Positions 23,211 to 32,577 of a DNA stretch of 55,550 bases are shown here, one piece after another (position 1 is the stretch's first letter; each line of letters starts with the position of its first letter). Below the pieces are notes generated by a model, which was given only the letters and a program-made list of their open reading frames with translations, searched no databases and was not told the DNA's origin. Position numbers and translations under genes: made by a program. The stretch comes from Escherichia phage CSP1C, in the sequence record PQ202980, one strand, 5' to 3'.

Positions 23211-23437
23211 TAGCGATCCTCGATTGCTCTAATTGTGGTTAAATCTAATTCACAGGTTGGAGGGTATCCATAAAGTCCCATTTGTTTTCCTTGTGCATTA
23301 AACCATGTGCCTGACGGATCCTGCCACTGCTTAGGTGTCTTGTGGAGAAATACTACTCTGTTTTCACCGTAATAATTAATTCTTACGCCTGTGTGAGTAT
23401 ATTTACGTTTACCTTTTGGTCTTCTTAAGTTAGCCAT
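23210..23437 (-). CDS. hypothetical small basic protein
   Basis: 75 aa; ATG 23437 overlaps dpdA stop, its own stop overlaps the clamp ATG. Confidence 0.45.
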   Translation of the reverse strand: MANLRRPKGKRKYTHTGVRINYYGENRVVFLHKTPKQWQDPSGTWFNAQGKQMGLYGYPPTCELDLTTIRAIEDR

Positions 23438-24357
23438 CAAAATAACTCCATTACACGATCACGGAATGTGCCGTCATGGGTAGCGTTAATGTTTGCAGCA
23501 ATTACACCATACGCCCATAAGTTGAAGGCAGCACGTGATTCATAGATTGTTGATAAACGTTCGTAAGTGAAACCGTTTTGCTCAAGGTATTTAAGGACAG
23601 CGTCTTGTTCAATTTCAGTTAATGTTGACACATGTTTACCAAAATGATGGCGGTCCGGTGACTTATCTGATACGCGCATTGGTCCCCACGGAGGAGTAAC
23701 CACACTTCCAAACGCTGCCGCTTGAATCCAGGAGGATGAGTCGCAGCTATACCACGGGTAACGCTCCATAATGGTCGTAGACGTAATACCAAATGCATGA
23801 AGCTTAATCTTAGGGCGACCGCTACCATCGCAAATGTATTTGTCCCACATGCGGTCCAGCCAAGTCTTAAGCGTGTCCGTTGAACGCCCTACCATGCCCC
23901 CAATGGTGATATATTCGTAGTTCTTCATGTAGTATTCAAGATAGCGGAAGTCCTCACCAAAGTGAAAGCATGGTAACGGTTTGGCGCCTCGTGCTTCCAT
24001 TTCAAGCTGGTTACGGTAGGTTTGCAGTGGGTCCCCGATACCATCAAGTACCGATGCCATTACCGCACCATCTTCTACCCGCAGAATATCTTTGTTGCGC
24101 TTGATGTACTCGCAGTATTCAACAATATCAATATGAGCACCCAAAGAGTGCGCAGAGAATGCACCGGAGTCGAGAAACACTTTAGCCCCGTCCGCACGCA
24201 TTTGATCAACATACTTCTGACGCCCAACGTAGTGGTATGATTCCAAAATATGGGGCAGATTGCGCGTGATATTTTTCTCATGCTCCGACAGCTTTTCATA
24301 ACGCTGCTGTCCAGGCATATATCCGTTTGTGTAAACTGCTGCCATAAAAACGTTCAT
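23437..24357 (-). CDS. dpdA: DpdA-like tRNA-guanine transglycosylase homologue (7-deazaguanine DNA insertion)
   Basis: 306 aa; TGT-like protein sitting beside folE/queD/queC/queE. Confidence 0.65.
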   Translation of the reverse strand: MNVFMAAVYTNGYMPGQQRYEKLSEHEKNITRNLPHILESYHYVGRQKYVDQMRADGAKVFLDSGAFSAHSLGAHIDIVEYCEYIKRNKDILRVEDGAVMASVLDGIGDPLQTYRNQLEMEARGAKPLPCFHFGEDFRYLEYYMKNYEYITIGGMVGRSTDTLKTWLDRMWDKYICDGSGRPKIKLHAFGITSTTIMERYPWYSCDSSSWIQAAAFGSVVTPPWGPMRVSDKSPDRHHFGKHVSTLTEIEQDAVLKYLEQNGFTYERLSTIYESRAAFNLWAYGVIAANINATHDGTFRDRVMELF

Positions 24358-24638: not shown

Positions 24639-25226
24639 TTATTTACAAGCTTCAAGGAACTCCCGGCGCCATTCTTTACCAATATCGCTACCATGCTCCA
24701 GTTCTGTAGCGCCCCGGAACGCTTTGGTAATAGTAGAGCTACCACATACCTGCTTAACTCCGCGCGACTCCATGCACATATGTTTGGCGTCAATATAAAC
24801 GCATACAGCTTTCGGATTTAGGTGCTCCACAATAGCATCCGCAATCTGGTTAGTAAGTCTTTCCTGTACTTGTAAGCGACGTGAAAAAGCATCCACCACG
24901 CGAGACAGCTTACTAAGACCGACAATGCGACCGTTGGGGACGTAGCCAACCACAGCACGCCCAATAATAGGGGCCATGTGATGCTCGCAATGACTGTATA
25001 CAGGAATATCGCGGACAATGACCATTTCATTCGAACCTTCCGCACCATCTTCAAAGGTTTTAAACAATCCAGCGATATTTACATCGTAACCACCGAACCA
25101 TGTAGCATAAGCTTTAGCTACACGTGACGGAGTTTCTTGTAAGCCTTGACGCAGAGTAGGTGAAGCATGGTCTTCAATATTAAACAACAGGGACATCACA
25201 GCGTTTTCAACAGCTTTAATATTCAT
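24639..25226 (-). CDS. folE: GTP cyclohydrolase I
   Basis: 195 aa with hallmark HCEHHMAP motif and overall FolE-like sequence. Confidence 0.85.
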   Translation of the reverse strand: MNIKAVENAVMSLLFNIEDHASPTLRQGLQETPSRVAKAYATWFGGYDVNIAGLFKTFEDGAEGSNEMVIVRDIPVYSHCEHHMAPIIGRAVVGYVPNGRIVGLSKLSRVVDAFSRRLQVQERLTNQIADAIVEHLNPKAVCVYIDAKHMCMESRGVKQVCGSSTITKAFRGATELEHGSDIGKEWRREFLEACK

Positions 25227-25261: not shown

Positions 25262-25795
25262 TTACAGGCTATAGTTTACGTGACATTTCGAAGTTTCTTC
25301 GATGGTGCATTCTACAAGTTGAACACCATGTTCGTCAAGCAGTTGCGGCCCAATTACGTTAACCATATATGCAGCTAAATTTTCCGCAGTCGGGTTGAAC
25401 GGTAAAGACACCAGCGAGTTGTCAAAGTCCCTTACATCTTGACCCGTAGTTTCGTCACAAAGTTCACAATCAACCTGAAGAGCTTTAATCAAAGGATCTT
25501 CTTCCCAATGCAGGAACTTATGATCCCAATTATCTTCCAACCACTGGCAGAGTGTAGTTTTAACCACACTAAAGTCAATCACGCGCCCGACGCGGTCCAG
25601 CTTAGCGCGCTCTTTTACTTCAACGTTAACAAGACCTCCGCCCATTTCAATTGGTACTTCTTTGACTGTTTCTTTCGGTGCAACCTTAAAGTGAAACTTA
25701 TAGTTGTGACCGTGAAGGTGACGGCACTTGCTTTCATGACCAACAACACGATGCCCAGCGCAAATTTCATGTGAACGAATTACTGTATAGCTCAT
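25262..25795 (-). CDS. queD: 6-carboxy-5,6,7,8-tetrahydropterin synthase
   Basis: N-terminal CAGHRV..HGHNY motif characteristic of the PTPS/QueD family; longer than bacterial QueD. Confidence 0.8.
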   Translation of the reverse strand: MSYTVIRSHEICAGHRVVGHESKCRHLHGHNYKFHFKVAPKETVKEVPIEMGGGLVNVEVKERAKLDRVGRVIDFSVVKTTLCQWLEDNWDHKFLHWEEDPLIKALQVDCELCDETTGQDVRDFDNSLVSLPFNPTAENLAAYMVNVIGPQLLDEHGVQLVECTIEETSKCHVNYSL

Positions 25796-26382
25796 TTTAA
25801 TACCTCTTTAGACTGTTCAATTTCTAATGCACGCTGTGCGGATGCAATAATATCTTTCAAATCTTCTACCAGACTTTTATGACCACGTTCGCCCGGCTGC
25901 AACGCCTTTTTAATCAAATGTTGTAAAGCTGGGTTAGTTGTTTTCCAAGCTTCCAAGACATCATACACGTCCACGATGCATTTTACAACATTGCCGTTTT
26001 CATCTTTACCATAAATAATTTTCTGATATTTATTCATGGGAATTTTAGATGGTTCATATTTGGTAAAAACTGCACCATTAAATGTATTACTTATGCTTAT
26101 TCCAGAAGAAGGTTGATGGTACACTCCGGAGCGAGTGTTTTCGCTGGCTTGTTTGACGTAATCATCCGCAACGATATATCGCCAGGCTATAATATCTTGA
26201 ACTTTATAAGGGCTATATTCATCCATAGCTGAACGCCCTTCTATAGCCCAATCCCATCCATGTAATAAATTCTTAACGTGTGTGCCGTTGCGCAAACGAA
26301 CTTCAAACTTCTCATTACGAAGAAAAATAGGCATTCCTTTACCGTCGTGTTGGTGCCAAATTTTATTAAGATTATCTTTCAT
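25792..26382 (-). CDS. hypothetical protein embedded in 7-deazaguanine cluster
   Basis: About 196 aa; ATG 26382 couples to upstream stop, own stop overlaps queD ATG; no recognisable catalytic motif. Confidence 0.5.
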   Translation of the reverse strand: MKDNLNKIWHQHDGKGMPIFLRNEKFEVRLRNGTHVKNLLHGWDWAIEGRSAMDEYSPYKVQDIIAWRYIVADDYVKQASENTRSGVYHQPSSGISISNTFNGAVFTKYEPSKIPMNKYQKIIYGKDENGNVVKCIVDVYDVLEAWKTTNPALQHLIKKALQPGERGHKSLVEDLKDIIASAQRALEIEQSKEVLK

Positions 26383-26383
26383 T

Positions 26384-26863
26384 TTACGCTCTCGCTGTAC
26401 GTGAATGAACTTCGTAAACAACCCAAAGGATGGCAGATGCTGTGAACTTGCTTAAGCTCATTGCTACCATTGATCCCGGATTAACAATACCTATAATACT
26501 TAAGAACACAATGGAGTCAATCGGTACAGCTACCAAAGAGCTAATAAATACACGTTGATGAAACGGCTTCTTAGTAATCGTGTATACCGCATAGTCCGCA
26601 AACTCACTGAGGGCAAAAGACGCAACTGATGCAACTACAACAGCAGGATCCCCAAATACCCAGCTAAGGATACAACCGACAATCATTGCAGGGATAACAC
26701 CTTTACCTGCGTTACGCTGTGCATAGTCGCGCAACACAAAGATAATACCTACAAAGAAAGCCATCATTGGGACTACGCCAAGCGGCGTGTTAAGCATTGG
26801 AAGGTAGGAAAAGCCCAGGTTTACGAATGTAATTGCAGCCAGATAAGCAACGATAAATTTCAT
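26384..26863 (-). CDS. putative queuosine-precursor transporter (YhhQ/DUF165-like) membrane protein
   Basis: 159 aa polytopic membrane protein from ATG 26863 (SD GGAGAA); location inside the preQ0 gene cluster. Confidence 0.5.
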   Translation of the reverse strand: MKFIVAYLAAITFVNLGFSYLPMLNTPLGVVPMMAFFVGIIFVLRDYAQRNAGKGVIPAMIVGCILSWVFGDPAVVVASVASFALSEFADYAVYTITKKPFHQRVFISSLVAVPIDSIVFLSIIGIVNPGSMVAMSLSKFTASAILWVVYEVHSRTARA

Positions 26864-26983
26864 ACTTTTGTTCTCCAGTTTTAACAGCGTTATTCGCTGG
26901 TTGTTGGGTTTAAAAGCTTTAGTAGTATAGTTGGGTTCCCGCACCCTAAACAATGCGCTAGCGGTGCGGTTTTCGCGGTAAGA

Positions 26984-27691
26984 TCAAGCTTTGCTAATAA
27001 ATTCGCTGTACCCTTTAGCACGCAGTTTGCACGCAGGGCATTCACCGCAACCATAGCCCCAGTCATGCAGAGTGCGACGGACGCCGTTATAACACGTATG
27101 GGACTGCTCAATTACTGTGGTTAAGAAGCCAACCTTATCCGCCAGCTCAAACGTTTCTGCTTTATTTAAACGCATAAGCGGGGTAACAAAATGAATATCT
27201 GTTTCATATCCAACGTTTAACGTAGCTTCAAGAAGATCAACAAACTGCTGGCGACAATCCGGATAACCGCTATAGTCTGTTTCACAAACGCCTGTAACCA
27301 CATATCGGGCTCCAACTTTCTGCGCGTAGGCGTGCGCGGTAGTCAGGAAAAGAGCATTACGGTTTGGCACAAAGCTAGCCGGAAGGTTTTTGTGCTGTTC
27401 GTGATGTTCGTTAACATCACCTTCGTTCCCGATTAAAGCGCTATTACCAATCTGTTTCAAAGCAGGTAATTCAAAGACAACAAATGGGACATCGTGCTCT
27501 TTACAGATCTGTTCAGCGCAAGCCAATTCCACAGTGTGACGTTGACCGTATGCAAAACCAATAGCGTAAACCTTATCATAGTTATTAAGTGCAAGACCTA
27601 AACAGGTCACGCTGTCCTGGCCGCCAGACAGGACGACAACGGCGGAGTTATGATTTTTTACAGGGAATACCAGTTTATCTAATTTATTCAT
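26984..27691 (-). CDS. queC: 7-cyano-7-deazaguanine synthase
   Basis: PP-loop VVVLSGGQDS and C-terminal Zn-binding Cys cluster CYNG..CGECPAC; ATG 27691. Confidence 0.85.
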   Translation of the reverse strand: MNKLDKLVFPVKNHNSAVVVLSGGQDSVTCLGLALNNYDKVYAIGFAYGQRHTVELACAEQICKEHDVPFVVFELPALKQIGNSALIGNEGDVNEHHEQHKNLPASFVPNRNALFLTTAHAYAQKVGARYVVTGVCETDYSGYPDCRQQFVDLLEATLNVGYETDIHFVTPLMRLNKAETFELADKVGFLTTVIEQSHTCYNGVRRTLHDWGYGCGECPACKLRAKGYSEFISKA

Positions 27692-27692
27692 T

Positions 27693-27881
27693 TTAGAAAC
27701 CTTTAAGGCTAATATTAAGATTAACGACCACTTGTTCAACTACATCATCAGATGTCATCTGACGCTTATGAATTTCAAGCTCCGAATGTATGTTCTTGGA
27801 TGCAGCACGACAGATAGCGTCATTCAGCTCGTCTTGTAAACGTTGCATCTTCTGCATAAGAATCACAGTCTCTTCATTCAT
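27693..27881 (-). CDS. hypothetical small protein (paralogue of 27874..28086)
   Basis: 62 aa, SD AAGGTG; shares ELN.AI..A....EL.I pattern with neighbouring gene. Confidence 0.4.
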   Translation of the reverse strand: MNEETVILMQKMQRLQDELNDAICRAASKNIHSELEIHKRQMTSDDVVEQVVVNLNISLKGF

Positions 27882-28086
27882 CTTCTACACCTTTAATATC
27901 ACAAGGATTGATTGTTACAGTTGACATCACAATTGGATGATTGCGTGCCCCGATTGTACTAACGTGATTAATATCTAATTCTACATGCACTCCCTGCATG
28001 GTAGCGTGAGCAATTGCAGAATTAAGTTTTTCTACCAGCTCAGTGATCATTTCCTGATGCTGTTTCGCTTCTTCCAAAGTGATCAT
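27874..28086 (-). CDS. hypothetical small protein (paralogue of 27693..27881)
   Basis: 70 aa, SD GAAGGTG; alternative ATG at 28050. Confidence 0.4.
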   Translation of the reverse strand: MITLEEAKQHQEMITELVEKLNSAIAHATMQGVHVELDINHVSTIGARNHPIVMSTVTINPCDIKGVEDE

Positions 28087-28342
28087 TTCTTTTCACCTTC
28101 ACTAATGTTTGTTTATAATCCATACCTTCAAGGTCAACTTCTGCCATTTCACAAAAGTTATCATCTTCCCAGTATGATGTCCATTTAGTTTGACTGTCCA
28201 TCAACGTTGGCTCATACTCGAATCCGTAAACTGTACCGTCTTGATCCGTAGCCAGCCACCGTACCCATTCAGGGACATCAAGCTTATTGCCAAAGTATTC
28301 AACTTCTTTAGTATGAACAACCTGACTTAATACACGCATCAT
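28040..28342 (-). CDS. hypothetical protein, member of 3-copy paralogous family
   Basis: 100 aa; VPEWVRWLATDQDGTVYGFEYEPT and EVDLEGMDYKQTL shared with ORFs at 49334 and 50172. Confidence 0.45.
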   Translation of the reverse strand: MMRVLSQVVHTKEVEYFGNKLDVPEWVRWLATDQDGTVYGFEYEPTLMDSQTKWTSYWEDDNFCEMAEVDLEGMDYKQTLVKVKRNDHFGRSETASGNDH

Positions 28343-29046
28343 TCCACCCCGATATATTTGTGAACCTGAAGCTGCAACGTGTACCCGTGTTTCATACAGC
28401 TTTTGACAACCGCTTGGATGTTACTGTGGTTAAGGTCTTCATCCTGCTCGTCCATTGGCTGTAAATATATCTTACCCTTGAACCCCTTCGGAGGTCTAGC
28501 GATAAATGGTGTAGCTTGATGATCTAATGCTTGAAGAGGCAAACCATCTTCCACGTTTACACAGCACGCTTTAAGTACATATTTAAATGCATTAGCGCGG
28601 TACAGCACAGAAGGATGAATCTTTGAGGTCTTGGGGCTACATACAATGACAGGTAGCTGGGAAAAGTCCTTCGGTAAAGGCATAGACCCATTAGTTTCAA
28701 TCTGTACCAAATACCCGCGCGATAACAGTTGTTCGACAAAAGGGTTAATTTGCTGACGGAACGGTTCACCACCAGTGATAACCACAAGTGAGGTGCTATT
28801 GCCTGATTCCAGCTTACGGCTTTCGATTAAACGCATGATATCAACAATGTGGTAAAGAGAACGACCTACAGTATAATCAGTATCACAGCCCGGACATTGC
28901 AGGTTACACCCAGCAAGTCGCACAAATACAGCAGGCTGGCCGCAGAATGGACCTTCACCCTGAATGGTAGAGAATACCGAATGCACGTCTAAATACATAT
29001 CGTTTTCTTTAGAACGAGACTCGGGAGCTTGTTGATTAATATTCAT
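28339..29046 (-). CDS. queE: 7-carboxy-7-deazaguanine synthase (radical SAM)
   Basis: Cys motif CNLQCPGCDTDY and VVITGGEP typical of QueE. Confidence 0.85.
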   Translation of the reverse strand: MNINQQAPESRSKENDMYLDVHSVFSTIQGEGPFCGQPAVFVRLAGCNLQCPGCDTDYTVGRSLYHIVDIMRLIESRKLESGNSTSLVVITGGEPFRQQINPFVEQLLSRGYLVQIETNGSMPLPKDFSQLPVIVCSPKTSKIHPSVLYRANAFKYVLKACCVNVEDGLPLQALDHQATPFIARPPKGFKGKIYLQPMDEQDEDLNHSNIQAVVKSCMKHGYTLQLQVHKYIGVE

Positions 29047-30600: not shown

Positions 30601-32577
30601 TTAGAACGGAACGTAATCCGGATCATCTACTTGTACAGGGTTAACCACATTGTTCACCGTTATGCCTTGCGTATTCTGTGAAACAATATCATCCCAGCTC
30701 ACATCATCATTATAGCTTGGACCTTCTGTTGTTCCATCCTGCCCGTATACTTTAACTTGAATAGCTTCGTCGTCCTGTGGAGCTTCAAACTTACCGAAAC
30801 ACGTACCATCATAATCGTAGTTCAATATCTCAGGCCATTTCTTATTGGTATGAACTTTGATGTATTTCGGTGTTTTAAGCATTGCAGCAACATCAAGAGC
30901 TTCTTCAATAGTTTGTGGTAAAGGAAGATGCGTCCTTTTCTTCCACCATGCAACCGCTTTACGACCTGCCCAGTCACCATGAAGTAGAGCTACCCATTCG
31001 CTGAATATTTTACTACCGCAATAATAAGTCACCTTCATTGTTGGAGGTTTGGAGCTGTCATTGCGTTTAGTGTGCTTCGCATAAGTAACATGCGTAACTT
31101 TAAAGTCTTCAACTACAGGAATGTCCTGCTTAATCAATGCTTCGGTACTTGCTGCCTTTTTAAGTTTGGTTTGGAACTTAAACTCATGACCGCAAAATCC
31201 TTCTTTAACATAATCCGTTCCACGTAGTCTGAATCCCTTCAAATATAATTGTTGAACTTGTTCCTGTGTAACGCTGTCCATAGGAATTGGTGCAAAGCCA
31301 CCGCAATAGCGAGCAGATGCATGATTATACGACCCGCACACATCGCATTCTTTAACCGGAGCAGTACCAGCACCTTTTTCGCCCGGGCGCTTGGGTTTAA
31401 CAGGGTCGTTAATAGGTCCCAAACGGCGCGTATTACCGCTGAAATCCAGTACAAGGCAGTTCTGCTTAGGACTTGCTGCAATAGCTTGCAAGCGACCTTC
31501 CTGCGTGGAAAGATCAAAGCCCTCCGCATATACCGGACGCGTACCGCGACCCAACATCTGAACCCATAGCACCGCCGAGGCAGTTGGGCGAAGCATGATA
31601 ATCAGATCAAGCATTGGATGGTCGAAACCTGTGGTTAAGACGTTGTTGTTTGTCAGCGCTCGAAACTCTCCACGCTTGAACTTTTCAATAATTTCATCAC
31701 GCTCTTTTGCATCAAGCTTTGAGTGAATACATCCGCAACTAATACCCATATCGTTCAGCATATCACACGCATCTTTAGCGTGTTCAATACCAGAACAAAA
31801 TATAAGCCAGCTTTGACGGTCTTCACCACATTCAATGGCTTCCTCAAGTGCGCGGAGTGTTGCGTCGTCGCGGTTTACCGCACTTTGTAGCTCACTCTGG
31901 ATAAACTCACCGCCGCGTTTCCCTACACCATTGAGGTCTAGTTCCATCTTTGTACGCTTTGGCACAACCGGAAGCAAATAGCCTTGCTCCAGGAACCAGT
32001 TAAAGGCTTCAGGGGTAGTTGCATCAAACGTTACTTTATCAAATAAAGCATCATCGTCTTTGTTTTCCTTAACAATTGAACCGTAACCCAGTCGGTAAGG
32101 TGTAGCAGTAAGACCGATAATTTTTAAATACGGGTTAACTTCACGCAATGCTGCAAAGAACTTCTTATACATTGTTGCATCACGCGGACTAATAAGGTGC
32201 GCTTCATCCACAAAGATTAGATCAACCTTGCCGAACTTTTTAGGATGCTTAGCAACAGATGCAATCCCCGCAAATGTGATAAGATTATAGACTTCTTTAC
32301 GCTTCAAACCTGCGCTGTAAATACCTGCTGGCGCTTCAGGCCAGACTTTCATTAATTTATCATAGTTTTGTGCAATTAACTCTTTGACGTGAGTTAACAT
32401 CATTACGCGCTGGTTTGGATACCATTTATAAAGCAGATCGAGGAACCCCGCGATAACGAGCGATTTTCCTGTCCCTGTTGGTAACAGGATCAAAGGGTTC
32501 CCCGCGTTACCCTTTTCAGCATCAAAATAGCGGAATACGCTATAAACTGCTTCCTGTTGATAATCGCGGAGCTGCAT
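30601..32577 (-). CDS. SF2 DEAH-type DNA helicase
   Basis: Walker A PTGTGKSL and DEAH box FVDEAHL; ATG 32577 (track start is TTG); C-terminal Cys-rich region. Confidence 0.8.
   Translation of the reverse strand: MQLRDYQQEAVYSVFRYFDAEKGNAGNPLILLPTGTGKSLVIAGFLDLLYKWYPNQRVMMLTHVKELIAQNYDKLMKVWPEAPAGIYSAGLKRKEVYNLITFAGIASVAKHPKKFGKVDLIFVDEAHLISPRDATMYKKFFAALREVNPYLKIIGLTATPYRLGYGSIVKENKDDDALFDKVTFDATTPEAFNWFLEQGYLLPVVPKRTKMELDLNGVGKRGGEFIQSELQSAVNRDDATLRALEEAIECGEDRQSWLIFCSGIEHAKDACDMLNDMGISCGCIHSKLDAKERDEIIEKFKRGEFRALTNNNVLTTGFDHPMLDLIIMLRPTASAVLWVQMLGRGTRPVYAEGFDLSTQEGRLQAIAASPKQNCLVLDFSGNTRRLGPINDPVKPKRPGEKGAGTAPVKECDVCGSYNHASARYCGGFAPIPMDSVTQEQVQQLYLKGFRLRGTDYVKEGFCGHEFKFQTKLKKAASTEALIKQDIPVVEDFKVTHVTYAKHTKRNDSSKPPTMKVTYYCGSKIFSEWVALLHGDWAGRKAVAWWKKRTHLPLPQTIEEALDVAAMLKTPKYIKVHTNKKWPEILNYDYDGTCFGKFEAPQDDEAIQVKVYGQDGTTEGPSYNDDVSWDDIVSQNTQGITVNNVVNPVQVDDPDYVPF

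Follow-up and report, generated by a model that had tools for sequence, protein, structure and literature searches.

A small VUT-family membrane protein in the preQ0 gene cluster of phage CSP1C as a putative transporter of 7-deazaguanine bases

Why does a phage that encodes the enzymes for preQ0 synthesis carry, in the midst of their genes, a gene for a small membrane protein, and could this protein import the kind of base that its neighbours make? The question is raised by the genome of Escherichia phage CSP1C (sequence record PQ202980), of which a stretch of 55,550 nucleotides was analysed, referred to here as the window. An initial annotation had described the gene product as a YhhQ/DUF165-like polytopic transporter and proposed that the phage may import the precursor in addition to synthesising it. 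The features of the window that bear on this proposal are the following.

28339..29046, minus strand: queE (CSP1_079), 7-carboxy-7-deazaguanine synthase, radical SAM; Pfam Radical_SAM and Fer4_12
26984..27691, minus strand: queC (CSP1_083), 7-cyano-7-deazaguanine synthase, the upstream neighbour; Pfam QueC, E 9.6e-75
26939..26969, no strand: inverted repeat CCGCACC...GGTGCGG with a 7-bp GC-rich stem, in the 120-nt spacer between queC and the transporter gene
26871..26876, minus strand: Shine-Dalgarno GGAGAA, 7 nt before the ATG at 26863, read from the sequence
26384..26863, minus strand: CDS (CSP1_084), 159-aa membrane protein of the VUT/DUF165 superfamily; ortholog of CAjan gp41 'yhhQ'
25792..26382, minus strand: ORF of unknown function (CSP1_085), 196 aa, coupled to CSP1_084; phrog_23361, E 5e-100
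25262..25795, minus strand: queD (CSP1_086), 6-carboxytetrahydropterin synthase; Pfam PTPS, E 1.8e-22
24639..25226, minus strand: folE (CSP1_087), GTP cyclohydrolase I; Pfam GTP_cyclohydroI, E 2.8e-61
23437..24357, minus strand: dpdA (CSP1_089), DNA guanine transglycosylase that would presumably use the imported base; phrog_887, E 2.3e-96

The gene and its place in the preQ0 cluster

The coordinates given for the gene in the initial annotation are exact: CSP1_084 occupies 26384..26863 on the minus strand, measures 480 nt including its TAA stop and encodes 159 aa with the N-terminus MKFIVAYLAAITFVNLGF... Its position in the preQ0 cluster is likewise as described, with queC upstream and an ORF without assigned function (25792..26382) downstream. 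Along the direction of transcription the order is queE, three small ORFs, queC, the 120-nt spacer, CSP1_084, the 25792..26382 ORF, queD, folE, a small ORF and dpdA, and all cluster neighbours of CSP1_084 lie on the same strand. The 5.7-kb cluster is 100% identical to that of Cronobacter phage CSP1 (KY982929.1), where the transporter ORF is labelled 'hypothetical protein'; CSP1 is close kin of CAjan and Seurat, two phages of the genus Seuratvirus in the subfamily Queuovirinae. The start codon is the methionine of the MKF motif, which is the start in all homologues, and an alternative TTG start at 26953 (189 aa) finds no support. Its Shine-Dalgarno sequence is also kept in CAjan and in loci L008-L010. 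At the other end the junction reads TAAAATG, with a single base between the stop of CSP1_084 and the ATG of the next ORF, and CSP1_084 and the downstream ORF are therefore translationally coupled, judging from this spacing.

CSP1_084 is a real gene under strong selection, far beyond a chance ORF. Its DNA is 91-98% identical to that of four Seuratvirus orthologs and the changes are nearly all synonymous, with dN/dS values of 0.011-0.030; 41 synonymous and two non-synonymous differences separate it from the CAjan gene (dN/dS 0.011). The PHROG profile phrog_4899 matches the protein end to end (E 4e-48), 118 relatives are found in a collection of 5.8 billion proteins, and a search with the family profile retrieves 2012 clusters at 50% identity at E <= 1e-3, 135 of them at E <= 1e-30. 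Most of the matches to this profile are 150-195 aa long.

The spacer between queC and CSP1_084 contains the inverted repeat at 26939..26969. No U tract follows it on the coding strand, and TTTT follows on the opposite strand. The repeat is identical in close relatives, and canonical terminator hairpins occupy the same position in the distant loci L011, L014 and L017, which suggests, as far as such hairpins can be read from sequence, an attenuated read-through into the membrane-protein gene. The fold of the 120-nt spacer is not unusual (z-score only -0.88). A scan for sigma-70 promoters and terminators across 25700-27900 gives counts equal to the shuffle expectation, with the spacer empty. Control by preQ1 riboswitches is frequent in the COG1738/YhhQ family and not obligatory. 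An Rfam scan of 26700-27150 returns no match at E <= 10, preQ1 riboswitches included, and this null result, together with the z-score, speaks against any known RNA element in the spacer, a preQ1 riboswitch among them. Nor does Rfam detect a preQ1 riboswitch at gathering score in nine bacterial loci, or any in 20 viral loci.

Several neighbours deserve comment in their own right. CSP1_085 (196 aa) has no Pfam or PDB match, and its C-terminal 80-90 residues form a domain that recurs across 716 phage records, most of which are siphoviruses of Salmonella and Escherichia that have no deazaguanine genes; on both counts it was set aside as a candidate component of the deazaguanine pathway. The interval between queE and queC (27693-28342, minus strand) holds three small overlapping ORFs without assigned function (CSP1_080-082, 62-100 aa); their conserved counterparts in CAjan are gp43 and gp44, of which one is labelled 'radical SAM domain-containing'. 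The DpdA of the window (23437-24357) has no Pfam match at E <= 1 despite its assignment to phrog_887 ('queuine tRNA-ribosyltransferase'); the Pfam TGT model misses the DNA transglycosylase family to which it belongs.

A short subfamily of the VUT superfamily

The search against DUF165/Vut profiles, which the initial annotation had put forward as the test that could refute its assignment, does find a similarity, a weak one. Pfam PF02592 (Vut_1) matches CSP1_084 with E 1.9e-5 and 25.5 bits, just under the gathering cut-off of 27.2, and the match is confined to the second half of the model (positions 58-140 of a 152-position profile). The same profile matches all 39 aligned relatives at E <= 0.01 (best 2.2e-11), and several of them score above the cut-off, for example P0221 (46.3 bits) and P0163 (42.7 bits). 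phmmer links CSP1_084 directly to bacterial Vut_1 proteins of 187-193 aa (E 1e-13), and hhalign aligns the family profile with E. coli YhhQ over 103 columns (E 2.5e-5, 75% probability). In the latter alignment the invariant family residues D46, D90, S108, D116 and F120 correspond to YhhQ D57, D125, S145, D153 and F157, and the intramembrane Asp, Glu, Lys and Asn residues that align with YhhQ are invariant across phage and bacterial members alike. Judging from these profile comparisons, CSP1_084 is homologous to the VUT/DUF165 superfamily (Pfam PF02592, TC 2.A.88), and the assignment is secure at the family level.

Orthology to YhhQ is another matter. The NCBIfam equivalog model for queuosine precursor transporters, TIGR00697, scores E. 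coli YhhQ at 229.6 bits and CSP1_084 at 21.7, below its cut-off of 50.95; eight relatives tested against it reach 17.9-38.1 bits, all below the cut-off, including the nearest bacterial ones (187-193 aa). The model of the E. coli-type YhhQ, NF008406 (cut-off 252 bits), gives no match to CSP1_084 at E <= 1 and 16-21 bits for its relatives, and when CSP1_084 is compared with E. coli YhhQ by pairwise BLASTP the similarity does not reach significance (E 1.3). Weak scores below the equivalog cut-off combined with homology at the family level thus indicate a separate VUT subfamily, and the label 'YhhQ/DUF165-like' stands for the superfamily and fails for YhhQ orthology. By these sequence criteria CSP1_084 belongs to a distinct, short (about 150-195 aa) and phage-enriched subfamily, phrog_4899, that is distant from E. 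coli YhhQ.

The two proteins share membership of the Vut_1 superfamily, six membrane segments, a predicted cytoplasmic C-terminus, three intramembrane aspartates, one serine and one phenylalanine in register, and a link to 7-deazaguanine metabolism. They differ in length (221 aa in YhhQ, 159 aa in CSP1_084), and only the TM4-TM5 region of CSP1_084 scores against the models. The N-terminus and the C-terminal part are both longer in YhhQ, and ~20 residues are inserted there between TM3 and TM4, so that its extra residues relative to the CSP1_084 family fall in loops and termini (hhalign). E. coli YhhQ is an experimentally supported importer that is required for preQ0/preQ1 salvage (PMC5372724), whereas CSP1_084 is a putative one, by sequence. 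Members of COG1738 differ moreover in substrate (preQ0, preQ1 or queuine) and specificity subgroups have been proposed (PMC5372724), so homology does not fix the specificity of CSP1_084.

The description of CSP1_084 as a polytopic membrane protein holds up well. Six hydrophobic segments are apparent (about 3-21, 28-44, 56-71, 73-95, 105-128 and 131-150), and the positive charges cluster at 45-54, 98-104 and 153-158, a pattern that fits a six-TM topology with both termini inside. An AF2 model has helices at 2-20, 33-70, 73-96, 101-124 and 129-158, where DSSP fuses the predicted TM2, loop 2 and TM3, and the topology of the model is uncertain in that part. Its best structural matches are all ECF S-components; the structures compared were YkoE (5edl), BtuM (8ovv), RibU (3p5n), FolT (5d0y/4z7f), ThiT (3rlb) and BioY (4dve). 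A search of viral protein structures in BFVD yields only three relevant matches, one of them labelled 'putative vitamin uptake transporter', and no PDB chain is matched in a sequence search with the family profile. As modelled, CSP1_084 adopts a complete six-helix fold resembling that of ECF S-components. It differs from the latter in sequence (only 4-16% identity), in its putative substrate, a purine analogue and not a vitamin, and in having no partner EcfT/EcfA genes. The initial annotation had taken the short length as a reason for caution, a concern that loses its force, since the modelled fold is complete and solved S-components themselves measure 155-197 aa. CSP1_084 is a complete small carrier, neither a truncated YhhQ nor a YhhQ ortholog. 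QueT and QrtT, ECF S-components that are predicted to handle preQ1 or queuosine precursors (PMC5372724), have the substrate class and the fold class in common with it; they are other families, often under preQ1 riboswitches, and neither matches CSP1_084 in Pfam or NCBIfam scans.

Linkage to dpdA in viral and bacterial loci

The best functional evidence, and the weightiest, is gene context, which links the carrier family to 7-deazaguanine DNA modification. The survey covered 80 IMG/VR loci that encode relatives of CSP1_084 (41-99% identity), each fetched with +/-10 kb of flanking DNA, and the ORFs of these loci were searched with profiles iterated from the DpdA, FolE, QueD, QueE and QueC of the window. 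A dpdA or DpdA-like gene is located at most 10 kb from the VUT gene in 71 of the 80 loci and adjoins it in 54. The loci, and the 45 clusters into which they fall at 90% identity, divide as follows.

phrog_887 dpdA next downstream, no FolE, QueD, QueE or QueC within +/-10 kb: 46/80 loci, 23/45 clusters
phrog_15826 'DpdA-like' gene next downstream: 8/80 loci, 3/45 clusters
dpdA at a distance of up to 10 kb, the full set of four synthesis genes, found in the window too, being present in 16 of these loci: 17/80 loci, 12/45 clusters
no dpdA detected, many of these being short contigs: 9/80 loci, 7/45 clusters

The adjacent dpdA genes of the first group belong to the same PHROG as the DpdA of the window; they encode about 230 aa and lie on the same strand as the VUT gene (among loci L008-L087, for example, L064 437-1665, L077 6432-7871 and L026 9878-11392). 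The second group (for example L059 3181-3816, L062 3748-4380, L065 10351-11079 and L032 1752-2426) involves a family that PHROGs lists under 'unknown function' and that is called 'DpdA-like' in the record of Arthrobacter phage Aoka (gp40, L006 8820-9446). Profile comparison relates phrog_15826 distantly to DpdA (hhalign E 7.8e-6, 84% probability), including a DNGAFS-type motif. Isolated phages display comparable arrangements: dpdA adjoins the transporter gene in Vibrio phage PS25B.1, a DpdA-like gene lies two genes from the carrier gene in Arthrobacter phage Aoka, and a distance of ~6 kb separates the carrier gene from queE and queC in two further phages, Vibrio phage 1.207.B and Rhizobium phage RHph_Y55. 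A search for a conserved third partner of the VUT-dpdA pair found none, the neighbours being generic (nuclease, repressor, lysozyme).

A published survey reported no correlation of phage YhhQ homologs with any phage group (PMC6884629). The dpdA adjacency seen in viral metagenomes is far tighter than this remark suggests, and the 54 adjacent pairs among 80 loci would accordingly be new. It is possible, and we put this forward tentatively as somewhat less probable than its opposite, that the short VUT subfamily phrog_4899 and DpdA constitute an 'import-and-insert' module in which two genes suffice for DNA hypermodification. If so, many uncultured phages would modify their DNA wholly from scavenged 7-deazaguanine bases, without biosynthesis genes of their own, and the importer of Seuratviruses such as CSP1 would recapture preQ0 that has leaked, or been freed by the lysis of neighbouring cells.

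The short VUT subfamily is also encoded in bacterial assemblies (GTDB contigs, L091-L170), mostly metagenome-assembled genomes of Alphaproteobacteria (Aestuariivirga, Hyphomicrobiales, Rhodospirillales) and Desulfovibrionaceae. Most of these copies adjoin housekeeping genes such as ndk, OmpA-family genes, era and yggS (for example L159 7995-8483, L139 7467-7976 and L131 6598-8237), and around these housekeeping-context copies neither Q or dpd genes nor a preQ1 riboswitch is seen. Among the nearest cellular relatives, queC stands directly upstream of the VUT gene in L089 (5274-6576, overlapping) and in the alphaproteobacterial L098 and L102, the same order as in the phage. Apparent tandem arrays of VUT genes in bacterial loci turned out to be spurious, produced when stop-to-stop ORFs of GC-rich DNA were grouped by single linkage, and there is one VUT gene per locus.

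Proposed role and competing explanations

CSP1_084 is very probably a small-molecule carrier of the VUT family. On balance, and with less assurance, we take it to be a stand-alone importer of 7-deazaguanine bases for DpdA, with an auxiliary function in CSP1; from homology and context we infer the substrate, the direction of transport and the independence of an ECF module. The protein would insert into the inner membrane of the host, its two termini facing the cytoplasm, and would need no ECF ATPase module, a mode of action also proposed for YhhQ. It would take up the free 7-deazaguanine base, preQ0 or possibly preQ1, from the periplasm, and the phage DpdA would then exchange the imported base for guanine in phage DNA. 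CSP1 and other Seuratviruses also make preQ0 de novo through FolE, QueD, QueE and QueC, and the carrier would serve them as an auxiliary branch for salvage or recapture. In phages with a carrier gene next to dpdA and no synthesis genes nearby, the carrier would be the supply route.

The suggestion that a phage imports the precursor beside making it is already the published, putative annotation of two orthologs. CAjan gp41 (YP_009196835.1), which is 98.7% identical to CSP1_084 at the amino-acid level, has been described as 'yhhQ, putative preQ0 transporter' (PMC7544227), and the ortholog in Enterobacter phage EC151 was called a preQ0 transporter and proposed to raise host preQ0 (PMC8310023). 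The transporter label is found on many GenBank relatives as well. CAjan gp41 and the other Seuratvirus orthologs (Seurat, Greed, Skure, BASEL) are one and the same gene as CSP1_084, with 98.7-100% identity, 159 aa and a position in the queC-queD interval. CAjan differs in that gp40 and gp39 together fill the interval from the transporter gene to queD, which in CSP1 holds the single 196-aa ORF, and in naming its gene 'yhhQ' where the CSP1 counterpart is only a 'hypothetical protein'. What is added here is the recognition of a subfamily apart from YhhQ, by the measure of the equivalog model, of a full-size S-component-like protein, and of the tight adjacency to dpdA. The annotation of CSP1_084 can be upgraded from 'hypothetical protein' to 'VUT/DUF165-family putative 7-deazaguanine (preQ0) transporter', with the explicit caution that the new name is based on gene context and a remote homology and does not imply YhhQ orthology.

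To date the only published knockout concerns CAjan, whose yhhQ was deleted by CRISPR-Cas9; the mutant matched the wild type in restriction resistance and nanopore modification signal, and dPreQ0 levels were unchanged (PMC7544227). This outcome is uninformative on transport because the phage retained its de novo synthesis and the MG1655 host its own yhhQ. For the 'delta-yhhQ' mutant the deletion is placed at position 31,850 and the genome is given as shorter by 550 bp (Table 1, PMC7544227), and in the CAjan genome (NC_028776.1, L003) gp40 occupies 31513-32082 and gp41 32084-32563. Taken together, the tabulated position and size and these gene coordinates suggest that the 5' part of the downstream ORF would have been lost too: the lesion, 31850-32400, may be a double one, in which yhhQ would lack its 3' two-thirds and the ORF downstream its 5' 40%, and it corresponds to about 26050-26600 of the window. 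If the carrier does feed DpdA, the experiment needs to be repeated in a background null for both synthesis and the host transporter. Anti-restriction hypermodification would in that case be acquirable as a two-gene cassette dependent on environmental preQ0, and the evasion of host defences by phages would be tied to how members of a microbial community exchange queuosine precursors.

The strongest competitor is a VUT carrier with another substrate (queuine, another purine or a vitamin-like compound), or one that works as an exporter of surplus preQ0, released guanine or a toxic intermediate. The heterogeneity of the COG1738/VUT family with its proposed specificity subgroups is in keeping with this, as are the failure of the subfamily in the queuosine-precursor-transporter equivalog model, the lack of Q-related neighbours or a riboswitch at most bacterial chromosomal copies, and the unchanged dPreQ0 levels upon deletion of the CAjan gene. 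Such a carrier would, however, leave the repeated tight adjacency to dpdA in phages without synthesis genes hard to explain, and the adjacency to queC in the phage and in three bacterial loci argues in the same direction. To our knowledge, moreover, solitary S-component-like proteins are uptake systems, which speaks against export. We consider another substrate or direction unlikely.

A role outside transport is considerably less probable still. Small phage membrane proteins often act in superinfection exclusion, in lysis timing or as membrane anchors, in this instance for the modification enzymes, and CSP1_084 could be suspected of the same given that the CAjan mutant has no modification phenotype and that CSP1_085, to which the gene is coupled in translation, has no assigned function. 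Yet its intramembrane Asp, Glu, Lys and Asn residues are invariant in phage and bacterial members and align with YhhQ, the model has the fold of an S-component, bacteria keep members of the same family as single-copy housekeeping genes, and CSP1 has a separate lysis cassette elsewhere in its genome. The least credible option, a true ECF S-component that needs the EcfT/EcfA/EcfA' module of the host, can appeal to the structural matches, all of them ECF S-components, and to the RegPrecise annotation of COG1738 as an ECF substrate component (quoted in PMC5372724), but founders on E. coli K-12, which has no ECF core components (PMC5372724) although CAjan, Seurat and the BASEL phages, all nearly identical, grow on it, on the lack of clustering between yhhQ and ECF genes (PMC5372724), and on the CSP1 genome and the conserved neighbours of the viral loci, where no ABC or ECF components are annotated. 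An E. coli K-12 without the ECF core and a CSP1 without annotated ABC/ECF genes imply that the putative carrier must act without an ECF module.

Some relatives of the carrier are longer. P0124 (339 aa) and P0126 (332 aa) possess a C-terminal extension of ~180 aa, which may be a fusion or a merge introduced by gene calling. A fusion ('Rosetta stone') search of the longer relatives found no deazaguanine domain in the extensions. The extension of P0126 has a weak match to HD/YfbR-like 5'-deoxynucleotidases, and P0171 contains an RseA_N domain. In Vibrio phage 1.207.B (L004 8001-9470) an HD-domain gene is situated two genes downstream of the VUT gene.
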